Shown here: positions 6,819 to 54,892 of the stretch, one piece after another
How the letters are laid out: every line of letters starts with the position of its first letter
Position numbering within the stretch: the stretch's first letter is position 1
NCBI GenBank assembly: GCA_038896535.1
Contig: JAWACY010000001.1
Coordinates: 160,001-224,000, forward strand
Direction: 5' to 3'
Length of the DNA stretch: 64,000 bases
Source of the DNA: Candidatus Anstonellales archaeon
Lineage (GTDB): Archaea; Micrarchaeota; Micrarchaeia; Anstonellales; J096
The notes under the pieces: generated by a model
Seen by the model: the letters and a program-made list of their open reading frames with translations, nothing else
Database searches by the model: none
Told to the model about the DNA's origin: nothing
Made by a program: the position numbers and the translations under genes

Positions 6819-6988
6819 GTAAGAAGGCAAATTAACTTATACACATGCCTTCTTACAATCATCCAACCCCTATTAAGCCCTGTAGTAAGAAGGCGCTTAC
6901 CCTTATACACACGCCTTCTTACAATCATCCAACCCCTATTATACGCTTTGGGAAGAAGACACTAACCCTGATAAACTTGCTTTCTTAA
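6819..6988 (+). repeat. Array A of 38-bp palindromic REP-like units (3 units, 66-bp period)
   Basis: GTAAGAAGGC-N18-GCCTTCTTAC at 6819-6856 and 6885-6922, degenerate copy at 6951-6988; 28-bp linkers starting AATCATCCAACCCCTATTA. Confidence 0.9.
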
Positions 6989-7048
6989 TGGTCTAAGACT
7001 TATTGATGTGATAAGTTTAAAAACATTTTGGAACACTATAAATAACAT

Positions 7049-7831
7049 ATGTCAAAATCAACAAAAAAAATATTTAAAACAGCAGCACTATCAGCTGCTC
7101 TTTTACTTACTCCGTTCATTAATCAAAAACCACTTTTGGAGAGAAAGCAGAAAGAAGCATTATATTATAGTAGACAAGAGCTTAGTTATATTACTGAACC
7201 TGTTCTATTTTTTTATGAAGGCCATGGTGAAGCATTTTATTCTATTGAAGCATCAAAGGCCATACCAATTATAAAGAAATATGGTTTTGACTTACTTTTT
7301 TTAGAATGTTTAGATGAACACGAAGGCAAAGTAAAAGCTGCACATAAAGCATTTGCAGAAAACAAAGCTGATGAAAGTGATGAAAGAATAGATAAACTTA
7401 GAAAACTACTTGAGAATAACTATGTTATGGGCACAGCTGATGCTTACTTAAGACTTATAAAAGCAGCAGCAGAATCACAAATGGAAGTTGCCTGCATAGA
7501 TGTAAAATTAGATGTAGCTAATAAAAATGGAAAGCTAATGTTTAAAGATGAAAAAGAAGCTGTTGATACTACGCAAAGAATTCTTTTTTCAAGAGAACTT
7601 CATATGCTAGATAAGGTAATGGAAGAAATTAAGAAGGGCAGAAAAGTGGCAATATTTATAGGATTTTTACATGCTACTTCAGATTACGGAGGAGCTGTAG
7701 TAAAGTACTTTTTAAATGAAAAAGAATACAAAAAATATATAGAGCATCCGACAATAAAGAAAATGTTATTAGATAAAGGGATATCAGTAGCTATATATTC
7801 ATATCAAAATAATGAGACAAACCCTAACTAA
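7049..7831 (+). CDS. Hypothetical protein with N-terminal signal/anchor; possible ChaN/EreA/TraB-TIKI-like fold
   Basis: Basic plus hydrophobic N-terminus; motifs 'FFYEGH', 'LLFLEC', 'RE.HM', 'AIFIGFLHA' in the order typical of that superfamily (inference). Confidence 0.5.
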   Translation: MSKSTKKIFKTAALSAALLLTPFINQKPLLERKQKEALYYSRQELSYITEPVLFFYEGHGEAFYSIEASKAIPIIKKYGFDLLFLECLDEHEGKVKAAHKAFAENKADESDERIDKLRKLLENNYVMGTADAYLRLIKAAAESQMEVACIDVKLDVANKNGKLMFKDEKEAVDTTQRILFSRELHMLDKVMEEIKKGRKVAIFIGFLHATSDYGGAVVKYFLNEKEYKKYIEHPTIKKMLLDKGISVAIYSYQNNETNPN

Positions 7832-8229
7832 GCTTGCATTTTTTCTCTTTTTTCTACTTTCGCACTCTTTTGCTCCTTAAGCTTTCCTTCTATTTCATAT
7901 CTCATATCAGGTCCTTGAATACTTCCTCCCTGCTGAATAAAATCCCTAGCAGTACTCATGTAGCCAGGTGCGTATGAAAATTGAAATGAGAAAAGGTATG
8001 CTGCTAAATCTATATTTGGTTTTCCAAGCTCAAGCTCTTTTCTTAGTAACTCTGCCTGTTTGTTATTCATACTAGCCCTATATTCATTTTCTCCCACCCC
8101 TCTTATAATTATCTCATTTCTTTGAAGATTAATTTCGATTTTAGCATATGGCTGTTTTGGTTCTTTATCAGAAACAGTAAGTTTGCCATCTTCTCCTGTA
8201 TAGGCATACATTGTTTTTATTTCAGCCAT
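7828..8229 (-). CDS. Hypothetical protein
   Basis: ORF track gives 7828..8268; the ATG at 8229 (MAEIK) lies about 28 nt below a TTTAAAAA box and is the more likely start. Confidence 0.6.
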   Translation of the reverse strand: MAEIKTMYAYTGEDGKLTVSDKEPKQPYAKIEINLQRNEIIIRGVGENEYRASMNNKQAELLRKELELGKPNIDLAAYLFSFQFSYAPGYMSTARDFIQQGGSIQGPDMRYEIEGKLKEQKSAKVEKREKMQA

Positions 8230-8282
8230 ATATATTTTGAGAATAAAAAGATTTTTAAATAGGTCCAATATTAAAATGGGCT

Positions 8283-8318
8283 AGGCAAATTACTATTAAA
8301 CATGCTTCTTACAAACAT
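8283..8318 (+). repeat. Degenerate single copy of the 38-bp palindromic unit
   Basis: AGGC-AAATTACTATTAAACAT-GCTTCTTAC-AAACAT matches the loop, right arm and linker start of the family. Confidence 0.7.
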
Positions 8319-8433
8319 AATTACTTACTACATTTTACTACTTACTACCTTTACTAATTACTACCTAATTCCACTGCATTTTACTATCATATAAATTTAT
8401 AAAAAGGTATAAAGTAGAGAAGGAAAGTGGCAG

Positions 8434-8748
8434 CTAGAATTCTATATAAACTTGATCTTTTTCTGCTGTTATTTTAAAAGCCCTTACTGGTTTTATTTTT
8501 TCTCCTGTTAAAGGATTTGATATGACTTCTCCAGTTTTTATATTAAAGACAGCAGCATGGCATGCGCACATTATTGCATAATCTTTTAAAAAACCTGTTG
8601 ACAATGGGCAGTTTGCATGTGTACAAACATCCTGTAATGCATAAAACTCCTCATTTTTCCTAATAATGCAGAATCTAAACCCATATGCATAAGCTACATT
8701 TATTCCATTAACGAAATCATTTATATTTCCTATTTTTACTTTTGCCAT
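8434..8748 (-). CDS. Rieske [2Fe-2S] ferredoxin
   Basis: 'CTHANCPL' and 'CACHAAVFNIKTG' Rieske ligand boxes. Confidence 0.92.
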   Translation of the reverse strand: MAKVKIGNINDFVNGINVAYAYGFRFCIIRKNEEFYALQDVCTHANCPLSTGFLKDYAIMCACHAAVFNIKTGEVISNPLTGEKIKPVRAFKITAEKDQVYIEF

Positions 8749-10070
8749 TTTCCATCCTCTATTATTTTCTTTGTTTTCTTTGGGTCTGCTCTACCTTTTG
8801 TTAGTGCCATAACTTTTCCAACAAGAAATGATAGCGCCTTTTCTTCGCCTTTTTTGTAATCTTCGAATGCTTTTATGTTTTCTTTAATAACCTTTTTTAT
8901 TATTTCAATTAATTCTTCATCACTTATTTTTTTATACTTATTTATAGCACTGCTGATTTTTTCTCCTTTGTCAATATAATTTATTAATAACATCTCCATA
9001 GCATCATCACTAATGAACATGTTGAAAAAATGTTCAAGCAATACTTTAATTTCATTTTCTTCTAGATTTGCTTTTCTAAATTGCATATGCCTGTAATTGA
9101 GTTGTTTCTTTAATGGGCCCTTTATCCAATTTGCTAATGCAACTTTATCGAAGTATTTTGATAAGTTTTCATAAAAATCGGCAATCTCCTTTTCTTCTAT
9201 TAAAACATGTGCAACTTCTTTATTTATCCCATTTTTTATAAATCTTTCAGCCCTTTCATATGGCAGCTCGCCAAAATCTTTTGTAAATGATAAATCTATT
9301 GTTAATGGCATTAAATCTGGCTCTGGCATATATCTATAATCTTCCTCTGTTTCTTTTTTCCTTAAACTTATTGTTTTCCCTCCTGCTTCATCAAAGTGTC
9401 TTGTTTCCCTTTCAACTTCTAAGCCCCTCTCAATCAACGATTTTTGCCTCTTTATTTCATATTCTAATGCTATACCAACATTTTCAAATGAATTTATATT
9501 TTTAACCTCCACTCTATTGTGCCCCTTTATGCTTATATTAGCATCAACTTTAACTGTGCCGTTTTCTTTTATTATATTATAATATCTCAACCCAAGTTCC
9601 AGCTTTTTTAAAATCTGTTTTGCATGCTCACTTCCTTTAATATCAGGTTTAGTCACAATTTCTATTAATGGAACCCCTGCTCTATTATAATCAACAAGGC
9701 CTTTTTTTAATTCATACCTCCCAGGATCTTCTTCTATGTGCACTTCTTTTATAGCAACATCATCCAAAAAGCCTTCAACTGCTAAAGGTGTGCTTGTTCT
9801 TTGATAACCTGCTGGAAGATCGGGATAGAAGTAGTGCTTCCTTAATAAATAAAATTTATCAAGCAATTTACATTTTAGCAAATAGCCAGCATTGTAAGCT
9901 AAATGAACTGCATATGAATTTATTGGTTTTGGTTTTGCTCCAGGCTGTGCTGTACATATCTCACATATCAATGTATTTGGCTCTTGTTCTTGCTCATTTT
10001 TACATTCACAAAAAAGCTTGCTTTGAGTATTTAACTGCACGTGTATTTCAAGCCCTATAAGTACATCCAT
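8736..10070 (-). CDS. gatB: Asp-tRNA(Asn)/Glu-tRNA(Gln) amidotransferase subunit B
   Basis: 'IGLEIHVQL..SKLFC', 'RKHYFYPDLP', 'DYNRAGVPLIEIVT', 'DYRYMPEPDL', YqeY-like tail; 444 aa with no GatE-type insertion. Confidence 0.93.
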   Translation of the reverse strand: MDVLIGLEIHVQLNTQSKLFCECKNEQEQEPNTLICEICTAQPGAKPKPINSYAVHLAYNAGYLLKCKLLDKFYLLRKHYFYPDLPAGYQRTSTPLAVEGFLDDVAIKEVHIEEDPGRYELKKGLVDYNRAGVPLIEIVTKPDIKGSEHAKQILKKLELGLRYYNIIKENGTVKVDANISIKGHNRVEVKNINSFENVGIALEYEIKRQKSLIERGLEVERETRHFDEAGGKTISLRKKETEEDYRYMPEPDLMPLTIDLSFTKDFGELPYERAERFIKNGINKEVAHVLIEEKEIADFYENLSKYFDKVALANWIKGPLKKQLNYRHMQFRKANLEENEIKVLLEHFFNMFISDDAMEMLLINYIDKGEKISSAINKYKKISDEELIEIIKKVIKENIKAFEDYKKGEEKALSFLVGKVMALTKGRADPKKTKKIIEDGKWQK

Positions 10071-10115
10071 AAATTAAAATGAAGGATTGTTTTTAAATAT
10101 TTGACTTAAAATATA

Positions 10116-10976
10116 TTGATGATTGCAATTATAGGAAAATCAATTTTGGGGCAAGAGATATATAATTATTTACCAGTTAAAAATAAGATCATTATATCAA
10201 GGTCTGACGGAATTCAATATATAAGAGAAGATTTTGTAAAAAAATTAAAAACTGCAAAGGCCATAATATGGGCAGCAGGCAGCTACAATGCAAAAGATAT
10301 GCAGAGGGAACACATAAAGCCAATAGAGGAGTTAGTAAGTGCATTAAAAAGGCAGCAGAAGCTTATATATACATCAAGTATATCTGTTTATGGAAAATCA
10401 ATTAAAAGAGAGATAGATGAGAATATTGAGATAAATCCAGATACAAAATATGCGATGGCAAAGGCAAAAGCAGAACAAATAGCAAAAGAGCATGAGAATA
10501 CAATAATTTTTAGGCTTGGAGTTTTGTATAGTCATAAATATAAAGCATATTCAACAATATTCAAGCTCATATCTCTTGGCATATGCCCATATTTTGGGAA
10601 TGGGCAAAACAATGTGCCTTTTACTTATATAAAAGATGTATTGCCATGTTATAAAAATGCTTTATCATTACAAGGAAATGACATTTATAATGTATCTGGA
10701 AAAGGCTGTAAGCAGATGTATGCAATAAAAATTGCTTCACAAGCAATTGGCAAAAAACCAATTTTGTTTAAAATGCCAATGAATATAGCAGTTATTTGCG
10801 ACATATTTGGATGCTTTTTAAATACTGAAGCTGTAAAGAGCATATCATCAGATAGGAATATAAATAATAAAAAAGCTATTGACTACCTTGGATTTAATGA
10901 AACGCCGATAGATAAAGGCATAAAAAAAGAGGTAATGCTATGGAAGAAAAAACAAATGAAAATGAAGGAGAAGTAA
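10116..10976 (+). CDS. NAD-dependent epimerase/dehydratase (extended SDR)
   Basis: 'IIGKSILG', 'YTSSISVYG', catalytic 'YAMAK'. Confidence 0.85.
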   Translation: MMIAIIGKSILGQEIYNYLPVKNKIIISRSDGIQYIREDFVKKLKTAKAIIWAAGSYNAKDMQREHIKPIEELVSALKRQQKLIYTSSISVYGKSIKREIDENIEINPDTKYAMAKAKAEQIAKEHENTIIFRLGVLYSHKYKAYSTIFKLISLGICPYFGNGQNNVPFTYIKDVLPCYKNALSLQGNDIYNVSGKGCKQMYAIKIASQAIGKKPILFKMPMNIAVICDIFGCFLNTEAVKSISSDRNINNKKAIDYLGFNETPIDKGIKKEVMLWKKKQMKMKEK

Positions 10977-11692
10977 TTAAGCTATTTTATGACATGAATG
11001 CTTATGAAAATGCTAATTATTATTTTCAACTAGCAAAGAAATATGCAAAGAAAGCAGAACAAGCAAGGAAAGCGATAGAAGAAATGAAAAAGAAAAACTT
11101 AAAAAAAGAAGAAAAAACAAAGCAAAACATTGTAATAAGCATGCCATATTTTTATACATCTGTAAAAAACCTTTACTGCACTGCAGGAAGAAATGCAGAA
11201 GAAAATGAAAAACTACTTAGGAAAAGCACTGAAAATGATTTGCTTTTTCATGCTGATATTCAAGGAGCAAGCACTGTATTGCTCAGAGATGGAATAAATG
11301 CTGAAATAGATGACAAGCTTGATGCTGCTTGTTATGCTGCATGCTATAGCAAAGCATGGGTTTTTGGCTATAGTTCAATAGATGTTTATGCTTTCAAAAA
11401 ACAACAAGTATATAAAGAACAGCAAAAAGCAGGCGCATTTAATATAAGCGGAGAAAGGGAATGGTTTAAGAACATGCCTTTGAGATTGAAAGTTGCCTTA
11501 ATAGGCAATGAAATTTTCATTCTCCCATACAGATGGCATGGGAATAAAGAAATTACCAAGCAAGTTGAAATAAGGCCAGGCAATATTGATAAAAATCAAG
11601 TATCAAAAAAGCTTAGTGAAATATTTAAGTGTGATGAGAATTATATAAAAAGCATTTTACCGCAAGGCAAGTTTGTCATTAAAAAAGAGTGA
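10940..11692 (+). CDS. C-terminal half of ribosome quality control protein Rqc2/RqcH (second coiled coil + NFACT-R + C domain)
   Basis: 'ENANYYFQLAKKYAKK', 'GRNAEENEKL', 'FHADIQGAS', 'YSKAW', 'GAFNISGEREW'. Confidence 0.85.
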   Translation: MEEKTNENEGEVIKLFYDMNAYENANYYFQLAKKYAKKAEQARKAIEEMKKKNLKKEEKTKQNIVISMPYFYTSVKNLYCTAGRNAEENEKLLRKSTENDLLFHADIQGASTVLLRDGINAEIDDKLDAACYAACYSKAWVFGYSSIDVYAFKKQQVYKEQQKAGAFNISGEREWFKNMPLRLKVALIGNEIFILPYRWHGNKEITKQVEIRPGNIDKNQVSKKLSEIFKCDENYIKSILPQGKFVIKKE

Positions 11693-11696
11693 TAGA

Positions 11697-12686
11697 ATGG
11701 CTGGAAAAAGAGAGCAAACAGAGCATTTAGATGGAAGAATATGCATTTTGCCTCAGTTAAAGGGCATAAACCCAAATGTTTTATATGAAGTTGGTTTGGC
11801 CCATATAGGTTTAATATTGCTCATCAACAATAAGGAGAAGATTGTTTTTTCTGACTCATTAAGCAAGGGGTCAATAGAGCAAGAAACAAAAGGAAAAAGC
11901 ATTGCTGTATATGACATTAAAGAATTTGAAAAATATATAAGAAATGAAAGCATAATGCTTGATTTCTCAAATTGTCCTTTGAACTTTTATTTATCATTAA
12001 AGAAGATTGCAAGAAAAATACAGAACTGCTCTGAGATGTTTATGAAAAAAAGGATGAAGAAAAGGCAGGATGAAATTGAAAAAATGAGAAAAGCAAGCAA
12101 AATAGCATTAAATGCATTGAATGAGCTTAAAGATAAGATAAGGGGTAAAACAGAGAGGGATTTGAAGTTTAAAATTATAGAATATTTTGCAGAACAAAAA
12201 GCATATGAAGCATTTCCTACAATTATTGCATCTGGGAAAAATGCTAGTTTCCCACACCACATGCCTTCAAATAAGAAGTTGAGTAAAAATATATTAGTAG
12301 ATAGGGGATGTTCTTATATGCATTATTGTTCTGACTTAACTGATGTTATTAATGTGGAAAGCAGGGCAGCTAAGGAAGACTATGAATCTATAAAGCAAGT
12401 TTTTTATTCCATTCTTGATGACTTGCCAAACATTGAAAAAGCAAATGAATTGCATGAGCTTTATATCGAACTTTATAAAAAATACAGATTAAAGGAAATG
12501 CCACATTTAATAGGGCATGGCATAGGATTGCAAGTTCATGAGTGGCCAATAATTAATGGTAAATCAGATCATGAAATCATTGGCACGACAATAACAATAG
12601 AGCCAAGCATATATAAAAAGAACTATGGCCTTAGATTTGAAAGAGTCATATATATAGGAAAAAGAAAAGCACGTATATTACTTTAA
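11697..12686 (+). CDS. Xaa-Pro peptidase (M24 family)
   Basis: 'SFPHH', 'VDRG...YCSDLT', 'HLIGHGIGLQVHE', 'TIEPSIY', 'GLRFE'. ORF track starts at 11673; ATG at 11697 preferred. Confidence 0.9.
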   Translation: MAGKREQTEHLDGRICILPQLKGINPNVLYEVGLAHIGLILLINNKEKIVFSDSLSKGSIEQETKGKSIAVYDIKEFEKYIRNESIMLDFSNCPLNFYLSLKKIARKIQNCSEMFMKKRMKKRQDEIEKMRKASKIALNALNELKDKIRGKTERDLKFKIIEYFAEQKAYEAFPTIIASGKNASFPHHMPSNKKLSKNILVDRGCSYMHYCSDLTDVINVESRAAKEDYESIKQVFYSILDDLPNIEKANELHELYIELYKKYRLKEMPHLIGHGIGLQVHEWPIINGKSDHEIIGTTITIEPSIYKKNYGLRFERVIYIGKRKARILL

Positions 12687-12687
12687 T

Positions 12688-13737
12688 TCATTTCATGTTT
12701 ACCCAATTTATCTCATAATATATGTTATCGCTGTTTTCAAGTTTTATCCTTTCTGCCTTATAAAATGTTACTGCTGCTTCTCTATCTACCAAGCATAATA
12801 GTAAAGGCAGATTGTTTTTTATGCAATAATCTAGAGCACTAGCAAGCATGGACCCTCTGACAAAATCTTGCTGTTTCAATATTTTTAATACATAAATTTC
12901 ATTATTTCTCTTTATCAGCCCATCTGGTTTAAATTTCACAATCTTTTCCTTTGATTTTGGTATTGCTATTATATAACTCTTTTTTACACCATGACAAACC
13001 CTTATTGCTCTGCTCCATTGTTCAGCATCAAGGAAAAGGCCTTTAGGAAAAACATGAATTATATGCTTTGAATGCATGCCTTTATCTGGTTGTGCATTTG
13101 GTTCATATATTCTGAAATCGCCACCAAATTTGAACCCAGTTTTTAATACATAACCTTTGCTCCTCCAGTCTTTATAAATACTATAAATATCATCAAAAAA
13201 TCTGTAATAAGGTCTAAAGCTGCCTGATAAAACATTTAATTCTTTCAAAAATTGGCATTCATAAAAATCAAGTAAAAAAAGGTTCCCATAATGTTTCTTA
13301 TAACTTCCATATTGTCCAAACCAATATTTATAATAAAGATCCTTATCCCCTTTTATAATTGCAAACTGCTTATCCTGGCCCAAAACAACAGCTTTTGCAT
13401 CTATATTAAAATCATGCGATTTATAAATTTTTATTACCCCATCAGTGATGCTCGCTTTTATGTCTCTTTCTTGAATGTCTTTTATATATTTAAAACCTTT
13501 CATAAAAAGTTCTCTGAATACAACGTAGTTAGATATATCAAAACTTGGCATTTCATTTAATTCAAAGTCAATTGAAAATACTTCATTTAATAAGAAAGCC
13601 TCGTTAATATTAAGTATTAATTCATCTTTATGAAATGTTCCTATGCCTCTAGCATATATTCTATTTTTTTCACTTTCTGTGCCTTTATATGAAAATAGCC
13701 CATTGCCCTTAATAGAGATTTTTCCTTTTAATTGCAT
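12688..13737 (-). CDS. endA: tRNA-intron endonuclease, probable three-unit epsilon2 (ARMAN/Micrarchaeota) type
   Basis: Catalytic unit 'KTGFKFGGDFRIY...HS...RVCHGVKK' in the middle of a roughly 350-aa chain; 'GQYGSYKKH' resembles the ARMAN-specific loop. Confidence 0.88.
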   Translation of the reverse strand: MQLKGKISIKGNGLFSYKGTESEKNRIYARGIGTFHKDELILNINEAFLLNEVFSIDFELNEMPSFDISNYVVFRELFMKGFKYIKDIQERDIKASITDGVIKIYKSHDFNIDAKAVVLGQDKQFAIIKGDKDLYYKYWFGQYGSYKKHYGNLFLLDFYECQFLKELNVLSGSFRPYYRFFDDIYSIYKDWRSKGYVLKTGFKFGGDFRIYEPNAQPDKGMHSKHIIHVFPKGLFLDAEQWSRAIRVCHGVKKSYIIAIPKSKEKIVKFKPDGLIKRNNEIYVLKILKQQDFVRGSMLASALDYCIKNNLPLLLCLVDREAAVTFYKAERIKLENSDNIYYEINWVNMK

Positions 13738-13741
13738 TCTA

Positions 13742-17557: not shown

Positions 17558-17578
17558 TAAAATTTATCTGGTGATTTT

Positions 17579-19768: not shown

Positions 19769-20175
19769 CCAAGAAGGCGTGTTTATAAGCCAATTTGCCT
19801 TCTTCAACAAAGCTTATAATAGAGGTTGGAAGATTGTAAGAAGGCGCATATATAAGGGCATTGCCTTCTTACCACAGGGAATAATAATAGGGGTTGGATG
19901 TTTGTAAGAAGGCACGTATAATAGGGTTAGTGCCTTCTTACTACATGGAATAATAATAGGGGTTGGATGTTTGTAAGAAGGCACGTATAATAGGGTTAGT
20001 GCCTTCTTACCTGGAAGATTGTAAGAAGGCGTGTTTAATAGGGTAAGCGCCTTCTTACCACAGGGAATAATAATAGGGGCTGGATGTTTGTAAGAAGGCA
20101 CGTATAATAGGGTTAGTGCCTTCTTACCTGGAAGATTGTAAGAAGGCGTGTTTAATAGGGTTAGTGCCTTCTTAC
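19769..20175 (-). repeat. Array B of 38-bp palindromic REP-like units (7 units) directly 3' of tRNA-Leu(CAA)
   Basis: Units at 20138-20175, 20090-20127, 20021-20058, 19973-20010, 19904-19941, 19836-19872 (37 bp) and degenerate 19769-19806; linkers of 10 or about 31 bp. Confidence 0.95.
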
Positions 20176-20177: not shown

Positions 20178-20287
20178 TGCAGGGGGTGGGATTTGAACCC
20201 ACGAACCCATATGGGACCGGATAACTCACTTAGTTATATAATTAGGCCTTGAGTCCGGCGCCGTTGACCAGGCTGGGCGACCCCTGC
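20178..20287 (-). tRNA. tRNA-Leu(CAA) with a 25-nt intron at position 37/38 (intron 20223-20247)
   Basis: Acceptor GCAGGGG/CCCCTGC, anticodon stem CCGGA/TCCGG, CT-CAA-G, long variable arm, GGTTCAAATC T-loop; BHB-type junction with central helix CTCA/TGAG and 3-nt bulges AGG and TTA. Confidence 0.95.
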
Positions 20288-44820: not shown

Positions 44821-45066
44821 ATGGCAAATGTTGTTATGATTATGAATGTGAATATAAGCGAGCAGGATAAAATAGATAGCATAGCAGAAGAAATAAAGAA
44901 AAAGCTGAATGTTAGTGATATAAAAAAAGAGGATATAGGCTTTGGCATAAAAAGGCTTAAAATAGCTGTAATGCTAGATGATGAAAAAGGGAGTGATGTT
45001 GAGCAAATACTCTATGATATTGATGGCATATCTTCTGTTGAAACAATAAGCGTAACAAGAGTATAA
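44821..45066 (+). CDS. ef1b: Elongation factor 1-beta
   Basis: 'MANV', 'EDIGFGIKRL', 'VEQ.L..IDGISSVE'; adjacent to aEF-2. Confidence 0.88.
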   Translation: MANVVMIMNVNISEQDKIDSIAEEIKKKLNVSDIKKEDIGFGIKRLKIAVMLDDEKGSDVEQILYDIDGISSVETISVTRV

Positions 45067-45090
45067 AGGTTTTAATCGAAGGTTGGGATT

Positions 45091-47292: not shown

Positions 47293-47343
47293 TATTGAAT
47301 AAAGACAAAAAATAAAAATAAATACATACATTTTTTATTTATA

Positions 47344-47428
47344 GCAGGGGTCGCCAAGCCTGGTCAACGGCGCAGGACTTAAGATCCTGTCCCATATGGG
47401 TTCGTGGGTTCAAATCCCACCCCCTGCA
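47344..47428 (+). tRNA. tRNA-Leu(TAA), no intron
   Basis: Acceptor GCAGGGG/CCCCTGC, anticodon arm CAGGA-CT-TAA-GA-TCCTG, long variable arm. Confidence 0.96.
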
Positions 47429-47512
47429 CATATAAGCGAGTTAGGAGTTAGCCGATATAAGCAAAACCTTCGAGCGAAGCGAGAAGAGGATTTGAAGCCA
47501 AAGGGTTCAAAT

Positions 47513-47694
47513 GTAAAAAGGCAAATTAACTTATACACACGCCTTCTTACAATCATCCCGCCCCCATTATTCCCTGTGGTAAGAAGGCAAATTAACTTAT
47601 ACACACGCCTTCTTACAATCATCCCGGTAAGAAGGCAAATTAACTTATATATGCGCCTTCTTACAATCTTCCAACCTCTATTATAAGCTTTGTT
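47513..47694 (+). repeat. Array C of 38-bp palindromic REP-like units (3 units + shared tail)
   Basis: Units at 47513-47550, 47579-47616 and 47627-47664; linkers of 28 and 10 bp; tail AATCTTCCAACCTCTATTATAAGCTTTGTT identical to array B. Confidence 0.93.
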
Positions 47695-47868
47695 TGGTTT
47701 TGGTAATTGAATTTATATATAATATATGCCTTCTTGTCATTCACTAAATTAATCTAAGTTATGTCTTAATCATGTAATATTAAATCATGTGATATTGATA
47801 AGGGGCTGGAGTGTTATTAAACTAAGTATTGAACTAACTACAATATTACAATATAAACAAATTATAAT

Positions 47869-48597
47869 TTAGGGTTTTCGTTTTGATATTTTATAAAGCC
47901 CAGTTGCTATTACTGGCCCTATTAATAGCAAGAATGTATATAAATTGGCCCTTGATACAAATGATAGTAATATATCATTCTTGACATCATAAAATACCTT
48001 TAATGCTTCTCCAACAAAATCTGGTGGGGCTTTAACTGATATTTCATTTGCTATACTTGAAGTAACATTATCAATTATTCCATTAATAATTAGGGTATAA
48101 ACAAACATCAATAAAATTGCTATGATGCCAAATAAAAGCATGCTTTCATTTCTTGCATAAACAAAAACAAAGAATACATAAGCAAGATATAAGACAATTG
48201 TTATTCCATAAATTATGCCGAGCATTGGCTTTATATTTTCTATTATAGCATCTAAAGGTTTTAGTATTTCATTTGCAGCAAGTTTTGATATAACCTCTAT
48301 TAAATCTGGTATTGTTTTTACGCTCCCATTTAAGACACTATCGCATGCTGGTTTTAGAAATTCTAATTCTTGTGGAAAGCTATTTTGTGCTTGGCACACT
48401 GTTTTTACTTGATCAATGCTAATTTGGGAGGCATTAATTTTTGTGTAGTATATAAAGGAAAGCTCTGAATTTATTTTTTGTGCAAAAACAGCCTTTGTGT
48501 TTTCATACTCGCTTATGAATATAAAAAGGAATATTGAGAAAAACAGCAATAACAAAATTAATATTGATAATGGCACATACATTATTGTTTTTATCAT
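47869..48597 (-). CDS. Hypothetical multi-pass membrane protein
   Basis: About four TM helices with two extracytoplasmic loops. Confidence 0.7.
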   Translation of the reverse strand: MIKTIMYVPLSILILLLLFFSIFLFIFISEYENTKAVFAQKINSELSFIYYTKINASQISIDQVKTVCQAQNSFPQELEFLKPACDSVLNGSVKTIPDLIEVISKLAANEILKPLDAIIENIKPMLGIIYGITIVLYLAYVFFVFVYARNESMLLFGIIAILLMFVYTLIINGIIDNVTSSIANEISVKAPPDFVGEALKVFYDVKNDILLSFVSRANLYTFLLLIGPVIATGLYKISKRKP

Positions 48598-48646
48598 AAT
48601 TCAATATATTAGTAAGAATTAAAAATTTTTCTTTTGATTAGGTTTT

Positions 48647-49387
48647 ATGGGGAACATACAGAAAAGGGTTTTCGTTCTTTTCATATTGGCTATAGCGTTA
48701 TTCGCATTGTTTTTCTCTATTGGCGTTGGTGGCACAACTAGTAGCAAAACAGATCAGCAGCAAGATAAAACAACTCAACAGCAAGATAAAGCAGTTGAGC
48801 AAAACAAAACAAATGAAAGCAAAGCAATTAAATTGAAGTGTGACCCATCTTCTTATACTACAATGAGCGCCAGAATTAAATGTTTTCTATCTTTATCAGA
48901 TGAGGATGTAAAAAATGTTAATTATACTCCTGAAGAATGCATATTAAAACAATCTGAAACTGATAAAAATAAATGCATAGAGAAATACAGACTTTTCCAA
49001 ACGTGCAGGCCAAAGCCAAGCACAGATAAAGAAAGGGAAAAATGCATATTGCCAAAATTAAATATATCTGGTAGTGTAAGACAAGAAGTGGAAATGTGCA
49101 AAAGCCAGCAGAGGCAGGATTTAATAAATATATGCATGTCAAAAATAAGAGAAAAAGTGCTTGATATGGTTAAATTTAGGGTTTACAACCTTGTTTATAA
49201 AGCACAAGAGCTTAAAGGCCTTGGCGTGCCAGAAGATAAAGTTATATCAATACTTGAAAAGGTAAATAATGCAAAAATAGCTCTTGAAAAAGCCAACTCA
49301 AATGATGAGAGAATAGCAATACTTGAGGGTTTAAAAGCAGATTGGCAGGCCTTTTCAGATGATGCTAAAAATTATGTAAAGAGGTGA
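48647..49387 (+). CDS. Secreted/anchored Cys-rich helical protein
   Basis: N-terminal TM, QQQDK repeats, eight spaced Cys. Confidence 0.72.
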   Translation: MGNIQKRVFVLFILAIALFALFFSIGVGGTTSSKTDQQQDKTTQQQDKAVEQNKTNESKAIKLKCDPSSYTTMSARIKCFLSLSDEDVKNVNYTPEECILKQSETDKNKCIEKYRLFQTCRPKPSTDKEREKCILPKLNISGSVRQEVEMCKSQQRQDLINICMSKIREKVLDMVKFRVYNLVYKAQELKGLGVPEDKVISILEKVNNAKIALEKANSNDERIAILEGLKADWQAFSDDAKNYVKR

Positions 49388-49391
49388 TTGA

Positions 49392-49661
49392 ATGAAAGCA
49401 GCAATTTTTATTATTTTAATTTCTTTAATGCTCATCTTCGGATGCACACAGCAGCAGGCCAAACAAGAAATTGGAAAAGAAAATAATAAAAGCATTAGCA
49501 ATGTATCAAACCAATCTTTGAATCAAACTATAAATCAAAGCCAGCAAGAAACAGGGCAAAAAGAGCAAGTTAGTGGAGAAAATTTAACAGAAGAAGAGTT
49601 AAACGATTTGTTCAATACTGACATAGATAAGGCTATAGAAGAAATTAATATAACTGGTTAA
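49392..49661 (+). CDS. Small putative lipoprotein
   Basis: Signal ending 'IFGC', Q/N/S-rich linker; GAGGTGA RBS. Confidence 0.7.
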   Translation: MKAAIFIILISLMLIFGCTQQQAKQEIGKENNKSISNVSNQSLNQTINQSQQETGQKEQVSGENLTEEELNDLFNTDIDKAIEEINITG

Positions 49662-49707
49662 TATAACTGGTTGATTTATTTTTGTTAATCACATTTAATG
49701 TGATATT

Positions 49708-50613
49708 ATGCATGCAGAAGTAAAAAAAATTTTAGAAGACATCAAGAGCATTAAGATACAGGGGGCTAGGAATATAGCGAAAGCAGTTTTAAATGCAATA
49801 AAAATAGAGGTAGCACATTCAAAATCAGTTAAAGAGTTAATGGCTAATATAGTTGAGATAAGAAATATATTAATGCAAACAAGAAAAACTGAGCCAATGG
49901 CAAGAAATTTAATTGAGGTTTCAACAAGGCATTTATTGAGCTATGCTTCTTTATCTGATAAAGAGGCTATAAAAAAACTTTTAGAGGATTCTGATAAAAT
50001 AATTCAAGAACTTGACAAATATTATAATAAGATGCTTGAATATGGAGCAGAGCACATCCCTGATGGAGCTGTTATTATAACAATATGCCATTCCTCCTCT
50101 GTTGTTGGAGTTTTGAAAAAAGCAAAAGAGATGGGTAAAGAGATAAATGTCATAAATTGTGAAACAAGGCCATTATTCCAAGGCAGAATAACGGCCAGAG
50201 AACTTGTTAATGCAGGAATAAAAGTAACACACATAATAGATAGCGAAGCAGCAGTATTTATAAAAAAATGTGATTCTGCATTGGTTGGGGCTGATGCAAT
50301 AGACGTTGAAGGGAACTTATACAATAAAGTCGGCACAAGGATGCTAGCAGAACTTTGTTATAATTATAATGTTTCATTCCATCCAATTTCAGAGCTGTTA
50401 AAATATGACCCAAAAACATTATTTGGAAAATTAGAGCCAATTGAATATAGAAGCCCAGATGAAATATGGCAGGGCTATCCAGATGGCATTAAAATTTTAA
50501 ATCCAGCATTTGACTATGTTCCAGCAGAGCTTATTAAATCATATATAACAGAAGAGGGCATTTTACACCCGCATGAGATAAAGCATGAATTTGAGAAAAA
50601 ATATAAATTGTAA
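49708..50613 (+). CDS. e2b2: Ribose-1,5-bisphosphate isomerase (eIF2B-like)
   Basis: 'IKIQGARNIA', 'TR.TEP', catalytic Cys in 'TICHSSSV', 'ETRP.FQG', 'VGADAI', 'NKVGT', 'NPAFD'. Confidence 0.9.
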   Translation: MHAEVKKILEDIKSIKIQGARNIAKAVLNAIKIEVAHSKSVKELMANIVEIRNILMQTRKTEPMARNLIEVSTRHLLSYASLSDKEAIKKLLEDSDKIIQELDKYYNKMLEYGAEHIPDGAVIITICHSSSVVGVLKKAKEMGKEINVINCETRPLFQGRITARELVNAGIKVTHIIDSEAAVFIKKCDSALVGADAIDVEGNLYNKVGTRMLAELCYNYNVSFHPISELLKYDPKTLFGKLEPIEYRSPDEIWQGYPDGIKILNPAFDYVPAELIKSYITEEGILHPHEIKHEFEKKYKL

Positions 50614-50620
50614 TATTTCT

Positions 50621-52201
50621 TTAAATTTTTGTTAATAAAAGTTTTTCCATAGATATTGGGGACATTGTTTCAAATGATTTTAATGCTAATGTAAGCCTTT
50701 CCTCATTATGGCTATAAATTGTCATTATTTTATCTCCTTTTTTTACAACATCGCCTTTTGCTTTCCATAAATAAATGCCAGCCCCTTTATCCATTGGAGC
50801 GCCAGCAATTCTTGCTATTCTTGATATGCCCTTATTGTCAATATGCTCTATTCTGCCATCTTTTTCAGCTATTATATCTATGCTTACATCGCCAATTTTT
50901 ATATCTTCTGACTTAATGTTAGGATTTCCCCCCTGCGCTTCTATTATCTCTTTCATCTTTTTTAATGCCTTACCTGAATTTAATATACTTTCTGCCATAG
51001 CAATGCCTTCCCCAAGTTTTGCTTTACCGCAAAGTTCAAGCAAAGTGCCAGCAATAAGAATTGCTTTTTCTTTTAAATCTGTTGGTCCTTTGCCTTCAAG
51101 GACTGAAAGCACATCTCTTGCTTCAAGCGCAGGACCAATACCATTGCCAATAGGTTCTGAGCCATCAGTAATAATGACAGCAGTATTAATGCCCAATCTT
51201 GTTGCAACGGTTTTAAATTTTTCCCCCATTGTTCTTCCCTCTTCTATATCTTCAACCTTTGCACCTCTCCCAATAGGTATGTCTATGATCAAATGTTTTG
51301 AACCAACTGCTTTTTTCTTAGCTAATATGCTTGCCATCATAACGCCTAATGGATCAAGCCTTAATGGCCTTCTTATTGCTATCATTTTATCATCTGCTGG
51401 AGCTATGTTAACGCCGCCTCCCCATACTATTGCGCCACCAACTTTTTTTGTTATTCTCTCCAGTTCTTCTAAGCTAAATTCAACAGGAGCAAGAACCTCC
51501 ATTGTATCAGCTGTTCCAGCAGGGGATGTTATTGCTCTGCTGCTTGTTTTTGGCATTAATGCCCCAGCAGCAGCTATTATTGGCACAACAACCATAGTTG
51601 TTCTGTTTGCAGCTACCCCGCCAATACAATGTTTATCAACAACATATTTTGAATCAAATGATATTTGCCCACCGCTTGAAACCATACCTTCTATTAAGCC
51701 TATAATTTCATCATCATCAAGCCCTCTTATTTGTGCAGCAACAAGAAAAGCAGCTATTTCTGGTTCTGCAAGTTTATTGTCAACGATATCTCTTACATAT
51801 GCTTTGAGTTCAGCATCAGATAATTTTGCCCCATTTATCTTTTTTATTATTCCTTCAATGCTTGTTGGAATTGGCATATGCCTTATTTCAAGTAAATCCC
51901 CATCCTTTATGTCTATTGCTTTCCTCACTTCTTCAAATATACCAACAAAGCCCCTGGCAATAACGCTTTGAGAAACATCAACAATTGCTACTGCTTCTTT
52001 ATCTCCTTTTTTTACTATAACTCTATTCCCTGGATATATGCTCATCTCTCTTGATTCCTGCTCATTTAATACTATAATATTTTTTCCAGCTTCAATATCA
52101 AATACCTTTGCCTGTACAATATAAAGTTTTTCTGCATAAACCTTTATCTCTTTGCTTGTTTTTAATGAAATATCAACACTATCGTAATGACCTTTTACCA
52201 A
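50621..52201 (-). CDS. AMP phosphorylase (NMP phosphorylase)
   Basis: N-terminal double-psi domain, 'DKHCIGGV', 'KTSSRAITSPAGTAD.ME', 'GIGPALEA'. Confidence 0.95.
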   Translation of the reverse strand: MVKGHYDSVDISLKTSKEIKVYAEKLYIVQAKVFDIEAGKNIIVLNEQESREMSIYPGNRVIVKKGDKEAVAIVDVSQSVIARGFVGIFEEVRKAIDIKDGDLLEIRHMPIPTSIEGIIKKINGAKLSDAELKAYVRDIVDNKLAEPEIAAFLVAAQIRGLDDDEIIGLIEGMVSSGGQISFDSKYVVDKHCIGGVAANRTTMVVVPIIAAAGALMPKTSSRAITSPAGTADTMEVLAPVEFSLEELERITKKVGGAIVWGGGVNIAPADDKMIAIRRPLRLDPLGVMMASILAKKKAVGSKHLIIDIPIGRGAKVEDIEEGRTMGEKFKTVATRLGINTAVIITDGSEPIGNGIGPALEARDVLSVLEGKGPTDLKEKAILIAGTLLELCGKAKLGEGIAMAESILNSGKALKKMKEIIEAQGGNPNIKSEDIKIGDVSIDIIAEKDGRIEHIDNKGISRIARIAGAPMDKGAGIYLWKAKGDVVKKGDKIMTIYSHNEERLTLALKSFETMSPISMEKLLLTKI

Positions 52202-52251
52202 TTTACCACCTTATTTTCCTCATTAATAATCGATACTCGTATTTTTAAATT

Positions 52252-52893
52252 TTATTTTTCTCTTATTTCTGCATCTTTTATTATTAGCTCCCCCCAGTCC
52301 TTATGCCATTTTATCTCTTTTTTAAGAATGATAATTCTTGAGTTGAAGAATGGCGCATCAAGAACAGCTGTTTCAGCTTCGCCACCCTCAAAAAATGGAT
52401 GTATAAATTCATTTTTTATATCTTTAAATTGCTTGCCAAGGCAATTTTTATCTAAGCCATATGCAGAAACTTTAACAACTAAAATTTCCATATCTTCATA
52501 TGCTTGCAATAATGAGAACCTTTTCCATAAAGGACAGAATGCTGGCACATGCAATTTTTCACTTATATAATCTATTCTTTGCTTTTGGTATTCGCTCTCA
52601 ACTGCACCAGAGCATATTGCATCAAACTCAAGTTCTTCTTTTAATTTTTTTAAGCACGTTAACATTTCTGATACTTCCCTTTCTTTTATACCAGAAACAT
52701 AAAACATGTAATGATGCATACCCAATGCCTTTGCCTGTAATTTTGTCAGATTAAGATTTTCGCTATGCAGCATATAGCTATGTTTCCTTTTTGGCATGAA
52801 TGTGACTAATATTGTTTCATAACCATTTGATTCCATCAAATGCGCAGCAAGTGTTGAATCTTTACCGCCAGTAAATAAACAAGCGACCCTCAT
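52252..52893 (-). CDS. dph6: Diphthine--ammonia ligase
   Basis: PP-loop 'LFTGGKDS', 'SYMLH', 'GAVESEYQK.R', 'PLW', 'EGGE.ET.VLDAPFF'. Confidence 0.92.
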   Translation of the reverse strand: MRVACLFTGGKDSTLAAHLMESNGYETILVTFMPKRKHSYMLHSENLNLTKLQAKALGMHHYMFYVSGIKEREVSEMLTCLKKLKEELEFDAICSGAVESEYQKQRIDYISEKLHVPAFCPLWKRFSLLQAYEDMEILVVKVSAYGLDKNCLGKQFKDIKNEFIHPFFEGGEAETAVLDAPFFNSRIIILKKEIKWHKDWGELIIKDAEIREK

Positions 52894-53897
52894 GCTCTCT
52901 TCTTTTTATATTTTCCATATTGCTTGCTGAATTTTTTGATTATTAAAAATGCAACCAGTATTAAAATAATAATTAATAAGGCAACCGCAATAATATAAAG
53001 TGTAAAATTATTCTGTTCTTTTTTTGTCTGCTCTGGTTTTTCTTCTACAAAAGGCTCTGTTTTGCTTTCATTTGCAATTTCTTTTGTTTCATTTTTCTGT
53101 TCCTTAATTACTTCCTCAGCCTTTTTTATCTTTGTTATATTTATTTCTAAACTAAATATTGCATTGTCTTTTAAGGCATAAATATTGTTATCCCAGCTTT
53201 CTAATGATGTTATATTTTCATAAGAACTTACTATATAAGAGCAATCGCTTTTATTATAAACATTAAGAGTTCCATTATAAAGGCCCAATATATAAAGGTC
53301 ATTAACTGCTATCTGTGTTGCATTTATACTGCAAAATGTTTTTCTTTCCAGATCAAATGGTATTATAATAAGATTATTTAATTTTTTATTATCAAGAAAA
53401 TAAAACGCATCTGATACAGAACCATGGATAAAAGAGCCATGCTCCCCATATTTTGTTTTTACATATCCGTTAAATGATAATGTTGCGTTATATATTGATA
53501 TTACTCCATAACTGTCTGCTGCAAGTATTGTATTATTTTTAGCCAGCATGACATTTTTACCATAATCATTAGCATATGTTGTTGGATTGAATAAACCAAT
53601 AATTTTAGATGGAGTTGAGTAATAAATATAAGTCCTATTATTATAATTTGTTTCGACAACGTCAAGAGCTTTTAAATTTTCTATCGTTACATCAAAGCTT
53701 TTTTCATTATCTTTAACATATATTTTCCCATCCCTGTTATTTATGAAATAGAATGTTTTGTCAAAAACCCTGAATTTTTCTAATTCCCTAAATTGTATAT
53801 CGCTTATTTTTTTATAGCTTACATTAATTGCTATCTCTTCATTTTGCCCAAACATTAAAAAGCACAGGAATAAAATTATGAATAATCTATTTATCAT
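52890..53897 (-). CDS. Membrane-anchored secreted protein (beta-rich, possibly propeller)
   Basis: N-terminal signal, beta-rich body, charged linker, C-terminal TM and basic tail. Confidence 0.72.
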   Translation of the reverse strand: MINRLFIILFLCFLMFGQNEEIAINVSYKKISDIQFRELEKFRVFDKTFYFINNRDGKIYVKDNEKSFDVTIENLKALDVVETNYNNRTYIYYSTPSKIIGLFNPTTYANDYGKNVMLAKNNTILAADSYGVISIYNATLSFNGYVKTKYGEHGSFIHGSVSDAFYFLDNKKLNNLIIIPFDLERKTFCSINATQIAVNDLYILGLYNGTLNVYNKSDCSYIVSSYENITSLESWDNNIYALKDNAIFSLEINITKIKKAEEVIKEQKNETKEIANESKTEPFVEEKPEQTKKEQNNFTLYIIAVALLIIILILVAFLIIKKFSKQYGKYKKKRA

Positions 53898-54657
53898 TTT
53901 TTTCTACCCCTCTTATTATTCTATTAAGTTTTTTATATATGGCAGGAGATGAAACAAAAACATTGTTGTCTTTTTCATTAAACATACTTCTAATTTTGCA
54001 TCCAGCATTTTTTGCTATTAATAAAGCAGCAGAAACATCCCAAGGCTTTACATCTATGCCAATAAAAGCATTAAATCTGCCAGAAGCAACATAACATATT
54101 TCAAGTGCAGCACTACCAAATTTTCTTATATCCCTGGTTTTATATTTTAACACGCTTAATAAGTTTATGAACCTTCTTATACTTTTATCGTTATTACTAT
54201 GACATGTGCCAAGAAATGCCCTTTTTATTTCATCATTATATGATGGTTTTATTATTTTTCCATTCAAATATGAAAATCCATTGTTCTTTGCATAAAACAT
54301 CTCATTTAGTATTGGGTTATAAACAACTGCACATATTGTATCTTTTCTGTATTTAAGAGCAATTGAGACATTAAAAAATGGAACATGATGCACAAAATTT
54401 GCTGTTCCGTCTAATGGGTCTATTACCCACAAATAATCCTTATCAATGTAATGAGCTCCAGATTCTTCTGCCAATATGCTATGCCTTGGAAAATATTTTT
54501 TTATCTCTTTTTTTATTATCTGCTCAGATTCCTTATCCGCTTTTGTTACTATATCTCTTATGCCCTTTTCTTCTTCTTTTACATGCATGTCGAAATATTT
54601 CTTTAATAAATCCCCGGCCTTTCTTGCTATTATTTTAGCTCTTTCTAAATACTCCAT
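53887..54657 (-). CDS. suhB: Inositol monophosphatase / FBPase family protein
   Basis: 'DIVTKAD', 'AEES', 'WVIDPLDGTANF', 'GSAALE', 'PWDVSAA'. ATG at 54657 preferred. Confidence 0.92.
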   Translation of the reverse strand: MEYLERAKIIARKAGDLLKKYFDMHVKEEEKGIRDIVTKADKESEQIIKKEIKKYFPRHSILAEESGAHYIDKDYLWVIDPLDGTANFVHHVPFFNVSIALKYRKDTICAVVYNPILNEMFYAKNNGFSYLNGKIIKPSYNDEIKRAFLGTCHSNNDKSIRRFINLLSVLKYKTRDIRKFGSAALEICYVASGRFNAFIGIDVKPWDVSAALLIAKNAGCKIRSMFNEKDNNVFVSSPAIYKKLNRIIRGVEKNDK

Positions 54658-54711
54658 ATATGATAAATGAAAATGGTTTTTAAAATCTTTCAATGCAAAG
54701 AAATTTTATAT

Positions 54712-54784
54712 GCCTCAGTAGCTCAGCTGGAAGAGCGACCGCCTTGTAAGCGGTAGGTCGGGGGTTCAAATCCCTCCTGGGGCT
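54712..54784 (+). tRNA. tRNA-Thr(TGT)
   Basis: Acceptor GCCTCAG/CTGGGGC, anticodon arm ACCGC-CT-TGT-AA-GCGGT, T-loop TTCAAAT. Confidence 0.96.
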
Positions 54785-54788
54785 CTGG

Positions 54789-54892
54789 GTAAGAAGGCAA
54801 ATTAACTTATACACACGCCTTCTTACAAACATCCCGCCCCTATTATTCCCTGTGGTAAGAAGGCACTAACCCTATTACACACGCCTTCTTAC
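54789..54892 (+). repeat. Array D of 38-bp palindromic REP-like units (2 units) 4 nt after tRNA-Thr
   Basis: Units at 54789-54826 and 54855-54892; linker AAACATCCCGCCCCTATTATTCCCTGTG. Confidence 0.93.

Follow-up and report, generated by a model that had tools for sequence, protein, structure and literature searches.

A Candidatus Anstonellales archaeon was found to carry a strand-polar family of 38-bp hairpin repeats whose place is the 3' trailer of tRNA genes. Whole isoacceptor families are covered, and sister species have analogous repeats. We looked at this family in a 64,000-nt stretch of one contig (the window, to the whole of which all window coordinates refer) and in the whole genome assembly (G000; 751,790 bp, 5 contigs, 32% GC, 91% complete). 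The units have a defined anatomy, are attached to tRNA genes with one polarity and are grouped by isoacceptor; genes of the known transposase and recombinase families searched are absent from the genome, and analogous arrays are present in sister species. A first-pass annotation of the window had taken the units for an archaeal relative of the bacterial repetitive extragenic palindromic (REP) sequences and of their clusters, the bacterial interspersed mosaic elements (BIMEs). The attachment to tRNA genes, in the orientation of the tRNA and by isoacceptor family, was absent from that annotation and is the defining property of the family. These are tRNA-linked hairpin repeats of a tiny archaeon, of an undescribed kind, and not bacterial-style REP elements.

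Attachment of the arrays to tRNA genes

Genome-wide, 63 units were found with exact 8-nt arms and 69 with a tolerance of two mismatches per arm. They are grouped in 16 arrays of 1 to 8 units; one more cluster, the 17th, opens contig C4 and continues the array that ends contig C2. When these arrays were compared with the 43 tRNA genes obtained from a whole-genome ARAGORN run with intron detection, 13 of the 16 were located downstream of a tRNA gene, 12 of them beginning 0-4 nt past the tRNA end, and all 13 were co-oriented with their tRNA. With a chance of 5.4% per intergenic region, the binomial probability of at least 13 of 16 arrays being 3' of a tRNA is 1.7e-14. The tRNA genes concerned are those for Leu (5/5), Ile (2/2), Arg (3/4), Thr (2/3) and Lys (1/2), with 0/27 among the other tRNAs, and only 1 in 100,000 random draws of 13 tRNAs fell into five amino-acid classes or fewer (permutation P = 1e-5). 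Within each of the 16 arrays, the units are head-to-tail, with a single orientation of loop and linker, and all units are outside long open reading frames (ORFs). The three arrays found elsewhere are one in sense after an ORF, one in a divergent intergenic region and co-oriented with the downstream gene, and one in antisense.

No CCA is encoded in the tRNA genes of this genome. Copies of the tRNA tail (last 14 nt with at most one mismatch, or last 20 nt with at most three) were found within 3 kb downstream of 0 of the 43 tRNAs, and the array borders showed no target-site duplication. The long linker that joins some of the units shares a core of 10-11 nt with the T-arm/acceptor strand of tRNA-Leu and tRNA-Ser(GCU) (ATCCCACCCC, ATCCCGCCCCC; local-alignment p of about 0.01 per tRNA). 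In a global alignment, arm plus linker did not match the tRNA-Leu end significantly (p = 0.14-0.36), and one and the same linker is also present behind tRNAs with differing ends, namely those for Arg, Thr, Ile and Lys. A convergent downstream gene was observed at 8 of 12 array-bearing tRNAs and at 13 of 30 array-free ones (P = 0.31), and an insulator role was rejected on this ground. The idea that TATA-like loops serve as promoters of downstream genes was also discarded, the downstream gene being convergent at 10 of the 16 arrays.

Contig C2 ends (C2:240144-240444) and contig C4 begins (C4:1-93) within identical 66-bp units. The two contigs are therefore probably adjacent, and the real copy number behind tRNA-Leu(CAG) is probably beyond the reach of the assembly. 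The arrays thus interrupt assemblies at the end of C2 and the start of C4; among public sequencing runs, the window stretch occurs only in DNA runs from hot-spring metagenomes, where contigs break at the arrays, and no RNA run is listed for it.

Anatomy and folding of the units

Each 38-bp unit consists of a 10-bp perfect stem, either GTAAGAAGGC/GCCTTCTTAC or the co-varying ATAAGAAGGC/GCCTTCTTAT, around a G-poor loop of 17-18 nt. Watson-Crick pairing was observed at 662 of 690 stem positions over the units of the genome. The outer stem pair co-varies, being G:C in 51 units, A:T in 8 and G:T in 4, and the A:T form is a subfamily located behind the Leu(GAG), Arg(UCG) and Arg(CCU) tRNA genes. Folded as DNA, each unit gives a hairpin of 10-12 bp with a loop of 14-18 nt and z-scores of -5.5 to -7.5, and the 7-unit array folded as RNA has a z-score of -9.7. 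The linkers are also G-poor and are either short, about 10 nt (AATCTTCCAG, AATCATCCCG), or long, 26-31 nt. The long linker corresponds to the short one followed by about 18 nt with a CCCTATTAT motif, which is found in the loop as well; 36 long-linker variants align to one consensus, and each array terminates in a long linker that is often decayed. On the tRNA strand, C and G amount to 29% and 9.6% in the loops and to 36% and 7.5% in the linkers, compared with 16% each in the genome. With such G-poor and C-rich loops and linkers on the tRNA strand, the elements are strongly strand-polar. A structure of the sense-strand RNA that goes beyond the stems was rejected: the antisense strand folds better (-1122 vs -1003 kcal/mol summed) because it is G/U-rich, and stem G·U and A·C pairs number 9 and 2, too few events for a decision on the strand.

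The arrays are also polar in their state of preservation: pairing is perfect in the tRNA-proximal unit of 15 of the 16 arrays, and the most distal unit is imperfect in 9 of the 15 multi-unit arrays. Identical units are present at distant loci, as seen for the loop AAATTAACTTATACACAC, which occurs 6 times over 4 loci. Behind tRNA-Leu(CAG), four identical 66-bp repeats were found, and behind tRNA-Thr(CGU) a two-unit block is duplicated; these exact higher-order duplications indicate local slippage or unequal recombination. At the junctions, the first-pass annotation had described a GTAG or GTGG at the start of intact units that follow a long linker. This is true in the window, but genome-wide it was found at only 19 of 38 long-linker junctions (GTGG 14, GTAG 5). 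Short-linker junctions read CAGG or CCGG and never GTAG or GTGG, and most tRNA junctions read ATAG, TTGG or TGGG.

Signals for transcription and RNA families

A run of five T (T5) between the tRNA end and the array end is absent from 11 of the 13 tRNA-linked arrays, and with so few T5 runs a polymerase transcribing the tRNA would be expected to enter the array. Among the 30 array-free tRNAs, 12 have a run of four T (T4) within 8 nt of the tRNA end. The arrays were considered as oligo-T terminators and this was rejected, as 8 of 10 G-type tRNA-linked arrays have no T run of at least 4 before the array end and T5 was found in 0 of 10; the Ile-UAU and Leu-CAG arrays have one T4 each. A homologue of RNase Z was detected in the genome (C3:39534-40397) at 266 bits, slightly below the curated cut-off of 293. 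Three arrays were compared with Rfam at E up to 1 and no family was matched, RtT (RF00391) included. In addition to this lack of an Rfam match, a C/D-box or K-turn RNA was dismissed since by eye no RUGAUGA/CUGA pair was seen on either strand, and an H/ACA RNA since the loop is too small for the pocket.

Arrays and flanking genes in the window

In the window, the pattern GTAAGAAGGC-N16-20-GCCTTCTTAC gave 12 exact matches, compared with 0 in 100 dinucleotide-preserving shuffles, and all 12 fall inside four arrays (6819-6988, 19769-20175, 47513-47664 and 54789-54892). Three imperfect 38-bp units, at 47513-47550 (one arm mismatch), 19769-19806 and 6951-6988 (both degenerate), bring the total to 15, as the first-pass annotation had counted. 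Its two kinds of linker were recovered as well, the long ones at the measured length given above, and the remnants that it had placed near 8283-8318 and 47702-47737 are genuine partial units (8284-8320 and 47702-47737). Its statement that all copies are extragenic holds with respect to long ORFs, the only ORFs over the arrays being repeat-generated ones of about 95-166 aa. All arrays of the window have one common polarity relative to their respective upstream gene.

The array with the most units, seven, is on the minus strand (19769-20175) and follows, in tRNA sense, the tRNA-Leu(CAA) gene (20178-20287, minus strand; C1 180178-180287). Its first arm begins 2 nt (TA) past the tRNA end; six units are intact and the degenerate one is the most distal. 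This tRNA gene contains a 25-nt intron, escaped both ARAGORN at default settings and Rfam at its gathering threshold, and was detected only when the intron option of ARAGORN was used. On the plus strand, the tRNA-Thr(UGU) gene (54712-54785, ARAGORN and Rfam) is followed 3-4 nt past its end by an array of two intact units (54789-54892), then by a degenerate terminal long linker (54893-54920, plus strand; AAATATCTGATTCATGTTATTGG), which also occurs at the end of the tRNA-Lys(CUU) array elsewhere in the genome.

The tRNA-Leu(UAA) gene (47344-47429, plus strand, ARAGORN and Rfam) has its array of three units at 47513-47664 on the same strand, 84 nt past the tRNA, with the arm mismatch in the first unit. 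The distal end of this array is decayed (47665-47737, plus strand), with a segment resembling a long linker and then the unit remnant at 47702-47737, which ends in GCCTTCTTGT. Between tRNA and array lies a hairpin-rich cassette of about 84 nt (47430-47512, plus strand). Its end, GGATTTGAAGCC...GGGTTCAAAT, is the complement of the T-loop region followed by its direct copy (GGGTTCAAAT being truncated). This cassette is another type of tRNA-end element, distinct from the arrays of 38-bp units, and is present in relatives too.

The array at 6819-6988 (plus strand, three units) is the only one of the window not located behind a tRNA. It begins 7 nt after the stop codon of a 321-aa ORF (5847-6812, plus strand, from the ORF list), and its sense is that of the flanking plus-strand genes; the units at 6819-6856 and 6885-6922 are intact, and that at 6951-6988 is degenerate, with 4 unpaired positions. 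The solitary remnant at 8284-8320 (plus strand) contains a loop-like segment, the 3' arm GCTTCTTAC and the linker start AAACAT, and has no 5' arm. The array-spanning ORFs are found at 19817-20101 (minus), 47396-47683 (plus) and 6428-6928 (minus). They arise because the repeat units have no stop codon in one frame, and are likely spurious calls worth masking in annotation.

Hairpin arrays in relatives and wider searches

The 38-bp unit family was not found in 40 relatives, nor in 18 genomes of the same family with a stricter pattern. It is a real, lineage-specific family of extragenic palindromes, dispersed and grouped in arrays, and to this extent the first-pass annotation is supported. In the same genus, tRNA genes of three sister genomes were scored for at least two perfect hairpins with stems of at least 8 bp within 160 nt, the first starting at most 8 nt from the tRNA end. 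By this strict criterion, 5 of 43 tRNAs were positive in G001 (Ala 3/3, Pro 2/2), 6 of 44 in G002 (Ala 2/3, Val 3/3, Ile 1/2) and 8 of the 30 examined in G003 (Gly 3/3, Pro 2/2, Ala 1/2, Val 1/3, Arg 1/2), with a hairpin family other than that of the 38-bp units. Three more tRNAs of G002 have a single hairpin (Ala-cgc and both Pro) and, if counted, bring Ala to 3/3 and Pro to 2/2. This second family (family B) comprises 23 different stems, all perfectly complementary and always with the pyrimidine-rich arm first, and its hairpin is usually followed by ATC or AATC. With the pattern of one of its stem types, 7 of 7 matches in G001 and 12 of 12 in G002 are downstream of a tRNA gene, at a distance of up to about 210 nt; for one of the 19, this is a truncated tRNA at a contig end. 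An oligo-T terminator role is possible for the T/A-rich hairpins of family B.

In a neighbouring genus (G004), GC-rich tandem repeats of about 90 bp with many imperfect hairpins are located behind tRNA-Lys(CUU) and tRNA-Lys(UUU) (L009, L324), one tract being between tRNA-Lys and tRNA-Leu; under the strict criterion, only Gly-CCC was positive (1 of 32 tRNAs). Cassettes of about 60-95 nt were also detected directly behind some tRNAs, their ends copying the T-arm or the acceptor 3' strand and being preceded by its complement; in relatives they are behind Leu, Ala, Pro and Thr tRNAs (L006, L012, L014, L018, L325, L345). Altogether, hairpin arrays at tRNA 3' ends, grouped by isoacceptor family, are a recurrent feature of the lineage, with a fast turnover of both the repeat family and the host tRNAs. 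A comparison aimed at empty sites showed no synteny: between G000 and G001-G003, the genes flanking array-bearing tRNAs gave one weak match in 29 comparisons.

When TAAGAAGGC-N17-18-GCCTTCTTA was sought in metagenome and genome contigs, no true relative was found among the matches listed, only single chance hairpins. An unrelated AT-rich repeat family of one metagenome (L035, L041, L043, L046, L049, L060, L083, L135) shares the 9-nt arms TAAGAAGGC/GCCTTCTTA. Among the matches listed, its members have loops that are palindromes in turn, no tRNA was detected with them, and tracts of microsatellite or telomere-like sequence are nearby; it is probably a eukaryotic transposon end whose arms match by chance convergence. 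A scan of viral contigs and a blastn search against phages and plasmids gave no match to the units. In the full-text literature outside subscription journals, we found no published description of archaeal or DPANN hairpin or palindromic repeats linked to tRNA genes.

Search for mobilising enzymes

Enzymes were sought by six-frame profile searches of the genomes, and what follows on transposases covers the named families only. The first-pass annotation had proposed a spread by the Y1/HUH transposase of bacterial REPs and had pointed to profiles of this enzyme and of tyrosine recombinases; neither gave a match in the genome or in G001-G003. For Y1/HUH (PF01797), there was no match in G000 at E up to 1 and none in the 3 same-genus genomes; one weak match was obtained among the 18 same-family genomes, and farther away within the order 7 of 22 genomes have the enzyme family, which indicates that the search works in this clade. 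G000 also has no match to PF00589 (tyrosine recombinase), PF07282 (TnpB) or PF00078 (reverse transcriptase), and PF00589, PF00665 (rve) and PF01548 (IS110) were unmatched in all four genomes of the genus. PF01609 (DDE_Tnp_1) gave one match each in G001 and G002 and none in G000. As for features of insertion sequences (IS) or of miniature inverted-repeat transposable elements, no target duplication was seen at the borders, and PF01797, PF07282, PF01609, PF00665 and PF01548 were the transposase families searched without a match in G000. As the first-pass annotation had stated, no mobilising enzyme is present within the window. That annotation had also reasoned that static, terminator-like elements would have a fixed copy number and position across relatives, in a lineage with no HUH enzyme or recombinase. 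The genus genomes have indeed no match to either enzyme, but position is not fixed, sister species using other repeat families and other tRNAs.

The only Cas1 of the genome (C2:44369-45067) adjoins, together with a 781-aa ORF, a CRISPR array of seven 37-nt repeats spaced by 73-76 bp (C2:43209-43702; L347 9210-9703). Cas1 was considered as mobiliser of the hairpin units and rejected, being part of an ordinary CRISPR locus whose 37-nt repeat is unrelated to the hairpins. On the same contig, Tandem Repeats Finder detected about 100 bp of G-rich tandem sequence that resembles TTGGGG/TGGGAT and is degenerate (C2:48010-48116; L347 14010-14116). A separate observation is that G000-G003 (84-91% complete) have no PF00589 match at all, not even to a XerA-type enzyme.

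Discussion

For the origin and maintenance of the arrays, the account that we favour, with about as much doubt as confidence, is that they are a part of the pre-tRNA transcript that RNase Z cuts off, that slippage alters their copy number, and that host recombination spreads them with no enzyme of their own. The arrays would be transcribed as the tail of the pre-tRNA, and RNase Z, by cleaving at the discriminator, would free a chain of 1-8 stable hairpins with unstructured C-rich spacers. In the DNA, arrays may grow and shrink via slippage or unequal recombination. The host's recombination, or template switching, would carry arrays to new tRNA genes, mostly within the isoacceptor family, with no part played by an enzyme of the element. 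The tRNA trailer would then be a safe harbour in which repeats persist, with a role in 3'-end formation that would be modest at most.

Several observations weigh against this account. We infer both co-transcription and RNase Z release from the sequence, and T5 runs are present in the linkers of the two A-type arrays (Leu-GAG, Arg-CCU). At the junctions, neither downstream homology nor a target duplication nor a copy of the tRNA tail was found, and host recombination is therefore no obvious explanation for a precise landing at unlike acceptor ends. The tRNA genes are 94% identical between orthologues of different species and 85-92% between paralogues of one genome, so there is no strong concerted evolution among them. 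Three of the 16 arrays are not behind a tRNA, and the antisense one of these is between two tandem genes. Selection for function could account equally well for the strong depletion of G and for the intact first hairpin, and the enzyme searches covered chosen families in a genome that is 91% complete.

E. coli has been known since 1978 to have repeats behind its tRNA genes, and to our knowledge there is still no agreement on their origin and function. The tRNA-linked repeats (TLRs) of E. coli include the 178-bp repeats of tyrT/tyrV and those of rrA/rrB/rrF, and the 18-19 bp at their 3' end are the 3' end of the upstream tRNA or rRNA (PMC8144298). From what that paper says of them, TLRs directly follow a tRNA or rRNA gene and belong to its transcription unit, with one to several repeats per locus; they occupy about ten loci or more and have no established function (PMC8144298). 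The arrays described here have the same position behind tRNAs (13 of 16, 12 of them within 0-4 nt), would be co-transcribed in the same way, and resemble TLRs in their number of loci and lack of an established function. In contrast to TLRs, they have no copy of the tRNA tail (0/43), a perfect palindrome of 38 bp forms their unit, and tRNAs of five amino acids have a single family in common. The closest archaeal precedent that we found is that of Methanopyrus kandleri, in which a CGTTA-N9-TAACG palindrome is located about 10 bp downstream of about half of the tRNA genes (PMC5217627). Like the units here, it is archaeal, palindromic, species-specific and at a fixed short distance behind a large fraction of tRNA genes, but it is a single small palindrome, and arrays, linkers and isoacceptor grouping are not described for it in that paper's passages on the palindrome. 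The cassettes with tRNA-end copies found in relatives are also different, since the 38-bp unit family has no tail copy and is common to tRNAs of different amino acids. A looser analogue is offered by the PstI palindromes of Neurospora, which are said to be dispersed and to have been debated as processing signals or selfish DNA; they are reportedly organellar, GC-rich and on both tRNA flanks, with no polar head-to-tail arrays. They flank tRNA genes in the mitochondrial DNA (Yin et al. 1981, as cited in PMC7218506).

The hairpin chains may alternatively be a selected functional module, either an RNA driven by the tRNA promoter and freed by RNase Z or an element acting in cis on the pre-tRNA, with conceivable roles such as 3'-processing or termination signal, exonuclease block, or protein-binding platform or sponge; selection would keep the hairpin and the G-poor, single-stranded loops. 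This is a tentative possibility, to which we give clearly less than an even chance. It fits with the co-orientation of array and tRNA in 13 of 13 cases, with a G depletion found outside the stems and on the tRNA strand only, with a first hairpin intact in 15 of 16 arrays and a co-varying outer stem pair, with the perfect complementarity and constant arm order of all 23 family-B stems, and with the coverage of all isoacceptors of an amino acid in four genomes. The M. kandleri palindrome, which that paper proposes as a 3'-maturation signal in the passages devoted to it (PMC5217627), is a precedent for it. However, only 13 of 43 tRNAs have arrays, the set of amino acids differs among sister species, and copy numbers of 1-8 with distal decay suggest weak constraint. 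Neither the convergence of downstream genes (8/12 vs 13/30, not enriched) nor the Rfam comparison of three arrays argues for a function, and template-switch correction can also keep palindromes perfect. We think it unlikely, in turn, that tRNA ends are landing pads, with proximal addition and distal decay of units and with targets chosen by isoacceptor family through a mechanism that is independent of recombinases or uses a new enzyme, the freed hairpin chains being functional RNAs tied to amino-acid families. If true, this would be a new class of site-specific repeat system, with the array polarity of CRISPR and the location of TLRs. That the units are a mobile element with an unseen enzyme, which would recognise tRNA ends and add units proximally as CRISPR arrays grow from their leader, appears distinctly unlikely to us. 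The exact junction, at 0-4 nt from the discriminator of 12 tRNAs with differing acceptor sequences, the intact proximal and decayed distal units, the independent colonisation of different tRNA sets in sister species and the identical units at distant loci (the AAATTAACTTATACACAC loop) all point in this direction. Yet Y1/HUH, tyrosine recombinase, TnpB and reverse transcriptase are unmatched in G000, rve and IS110 are unmatched in the four genus genomes and DDE_Tnp_1 is confined to G001 and G002, the sole Cas1 is that of the ordinary CRISPR locus, whose repeat is unrelated, and neither a target-site duplication nor a match in the phage and plasmid collections or viral contigs was found.

The explanation given by the first-pass annotation, REP/BIME-like elements mobilised by a REP-associated tyrosine transposase (RAYT, a Y1 HUH transposase), is largely refuted already and extremely improbable. 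The units do resemble REPs and BIMEs in being short, extragenic, species-specific palindromes in many clustered copies, mostly 3' of transcription units, and a GTAG or GTGG overlaps the arm at half of the long-linker junctions (19/38). The 3' arm ends in TTAC, which we take to be the target tetranucleotide of IS608. In its passages on these elements, Nunvar 2010 describes REPs as compact GC-rich hairpins (Table 1), typically in more than 100 copies, and as alternating in orientation within BIMEs. Here, in contrast, about 69 copies with AT-rich loops of 17-18 nt are head-to-tail in all 16 arrays, a constant GTAG/CGTC tag is lacking, no RAYT gene was found (PF01797 being unmatched in G000 and in 3 of 3 same-genus genomes, with one weak match in 18 same-family genomes), and the near-exclusive attachment to tRNA 3' ends is foreign to REPs. 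Scars of integrative elements at tRNA attachment (att) sites, or classical TLRs born from the duplication of a tRNA 3' end with its trailer, are also very improbable. Their location behind tRNA genes would be the same, the linker core is common to the ends of tRNA-Leu and tRNA-Ser(GCU), an 84-nt cassette with a T-loop copy is present at tRNA-Leu(UAA), and the cassettes of relatives end in tRNA 3' copies; against this, no direct repeat of the tRNA 3' end was found for the 43 tRNAs within 3 kb, the global alignment was not significant, the same linker is behind Arg, Thr, Ile and Lys tRNAs with differing ends, and no integrase (PF00589) was matched in 4 of 4 genus genomes. Guide-RNA arrays of CRISPR or TIGR type are refuted by the lack of spacer diversity and have practically no probability left. 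What recalls CRISPR is the polarity of palindromic-repeat arrays with a degenerate far-end repeat, and TIGR systems, as far as the source goes, include stem-loop arrays and occur in small-genome parasites (PMC12045711). But the intervening sequences here are few conserved variants and not unique spacers, the 16 loci are scattered with no adjacent cas or Nop-domain (Tas) gene, the adjacency of Tas not having been searched by profile, and the true CRISPR repeat of the genome is unrelated. TIGR units are described in the relevant parts of that source as having two variable spacers of 8-12 nt, box C/D-like motifs and an adjoining Nop-domain Tas gene (PMC12045711), for which loops of 17-18 nt, of few related types and in arrays dispersed behind tRNAs, are too short.

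Significance

The theme of repeats behind tRNA genes, known from E. coli, is found here in a sharper and more testable form: the hairpins are perfect, the junctions exact and the polarity strict, and isoacceptor families are covered as a whole. Sister species fill the same niche with different repeat families, in tiny genomes where unexplained DNA is rare and where no known recombinase was found among the families searched. As to what the arrays do, a selected role as RNA or as DNA is a minor possibility, and an insertion enzyme directed at tRNA ends that has escaped the searches is an improbable one. If the repeats are selfish, the tRNA 3' trailer is a safe harbour for them, and they hint that DNA can be copied from one tRNA gene to another with no transposase involved. 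A function, on the other hand, would make them a new class of structured RNA in DPANN archaea, driven by the tRNA promoter.

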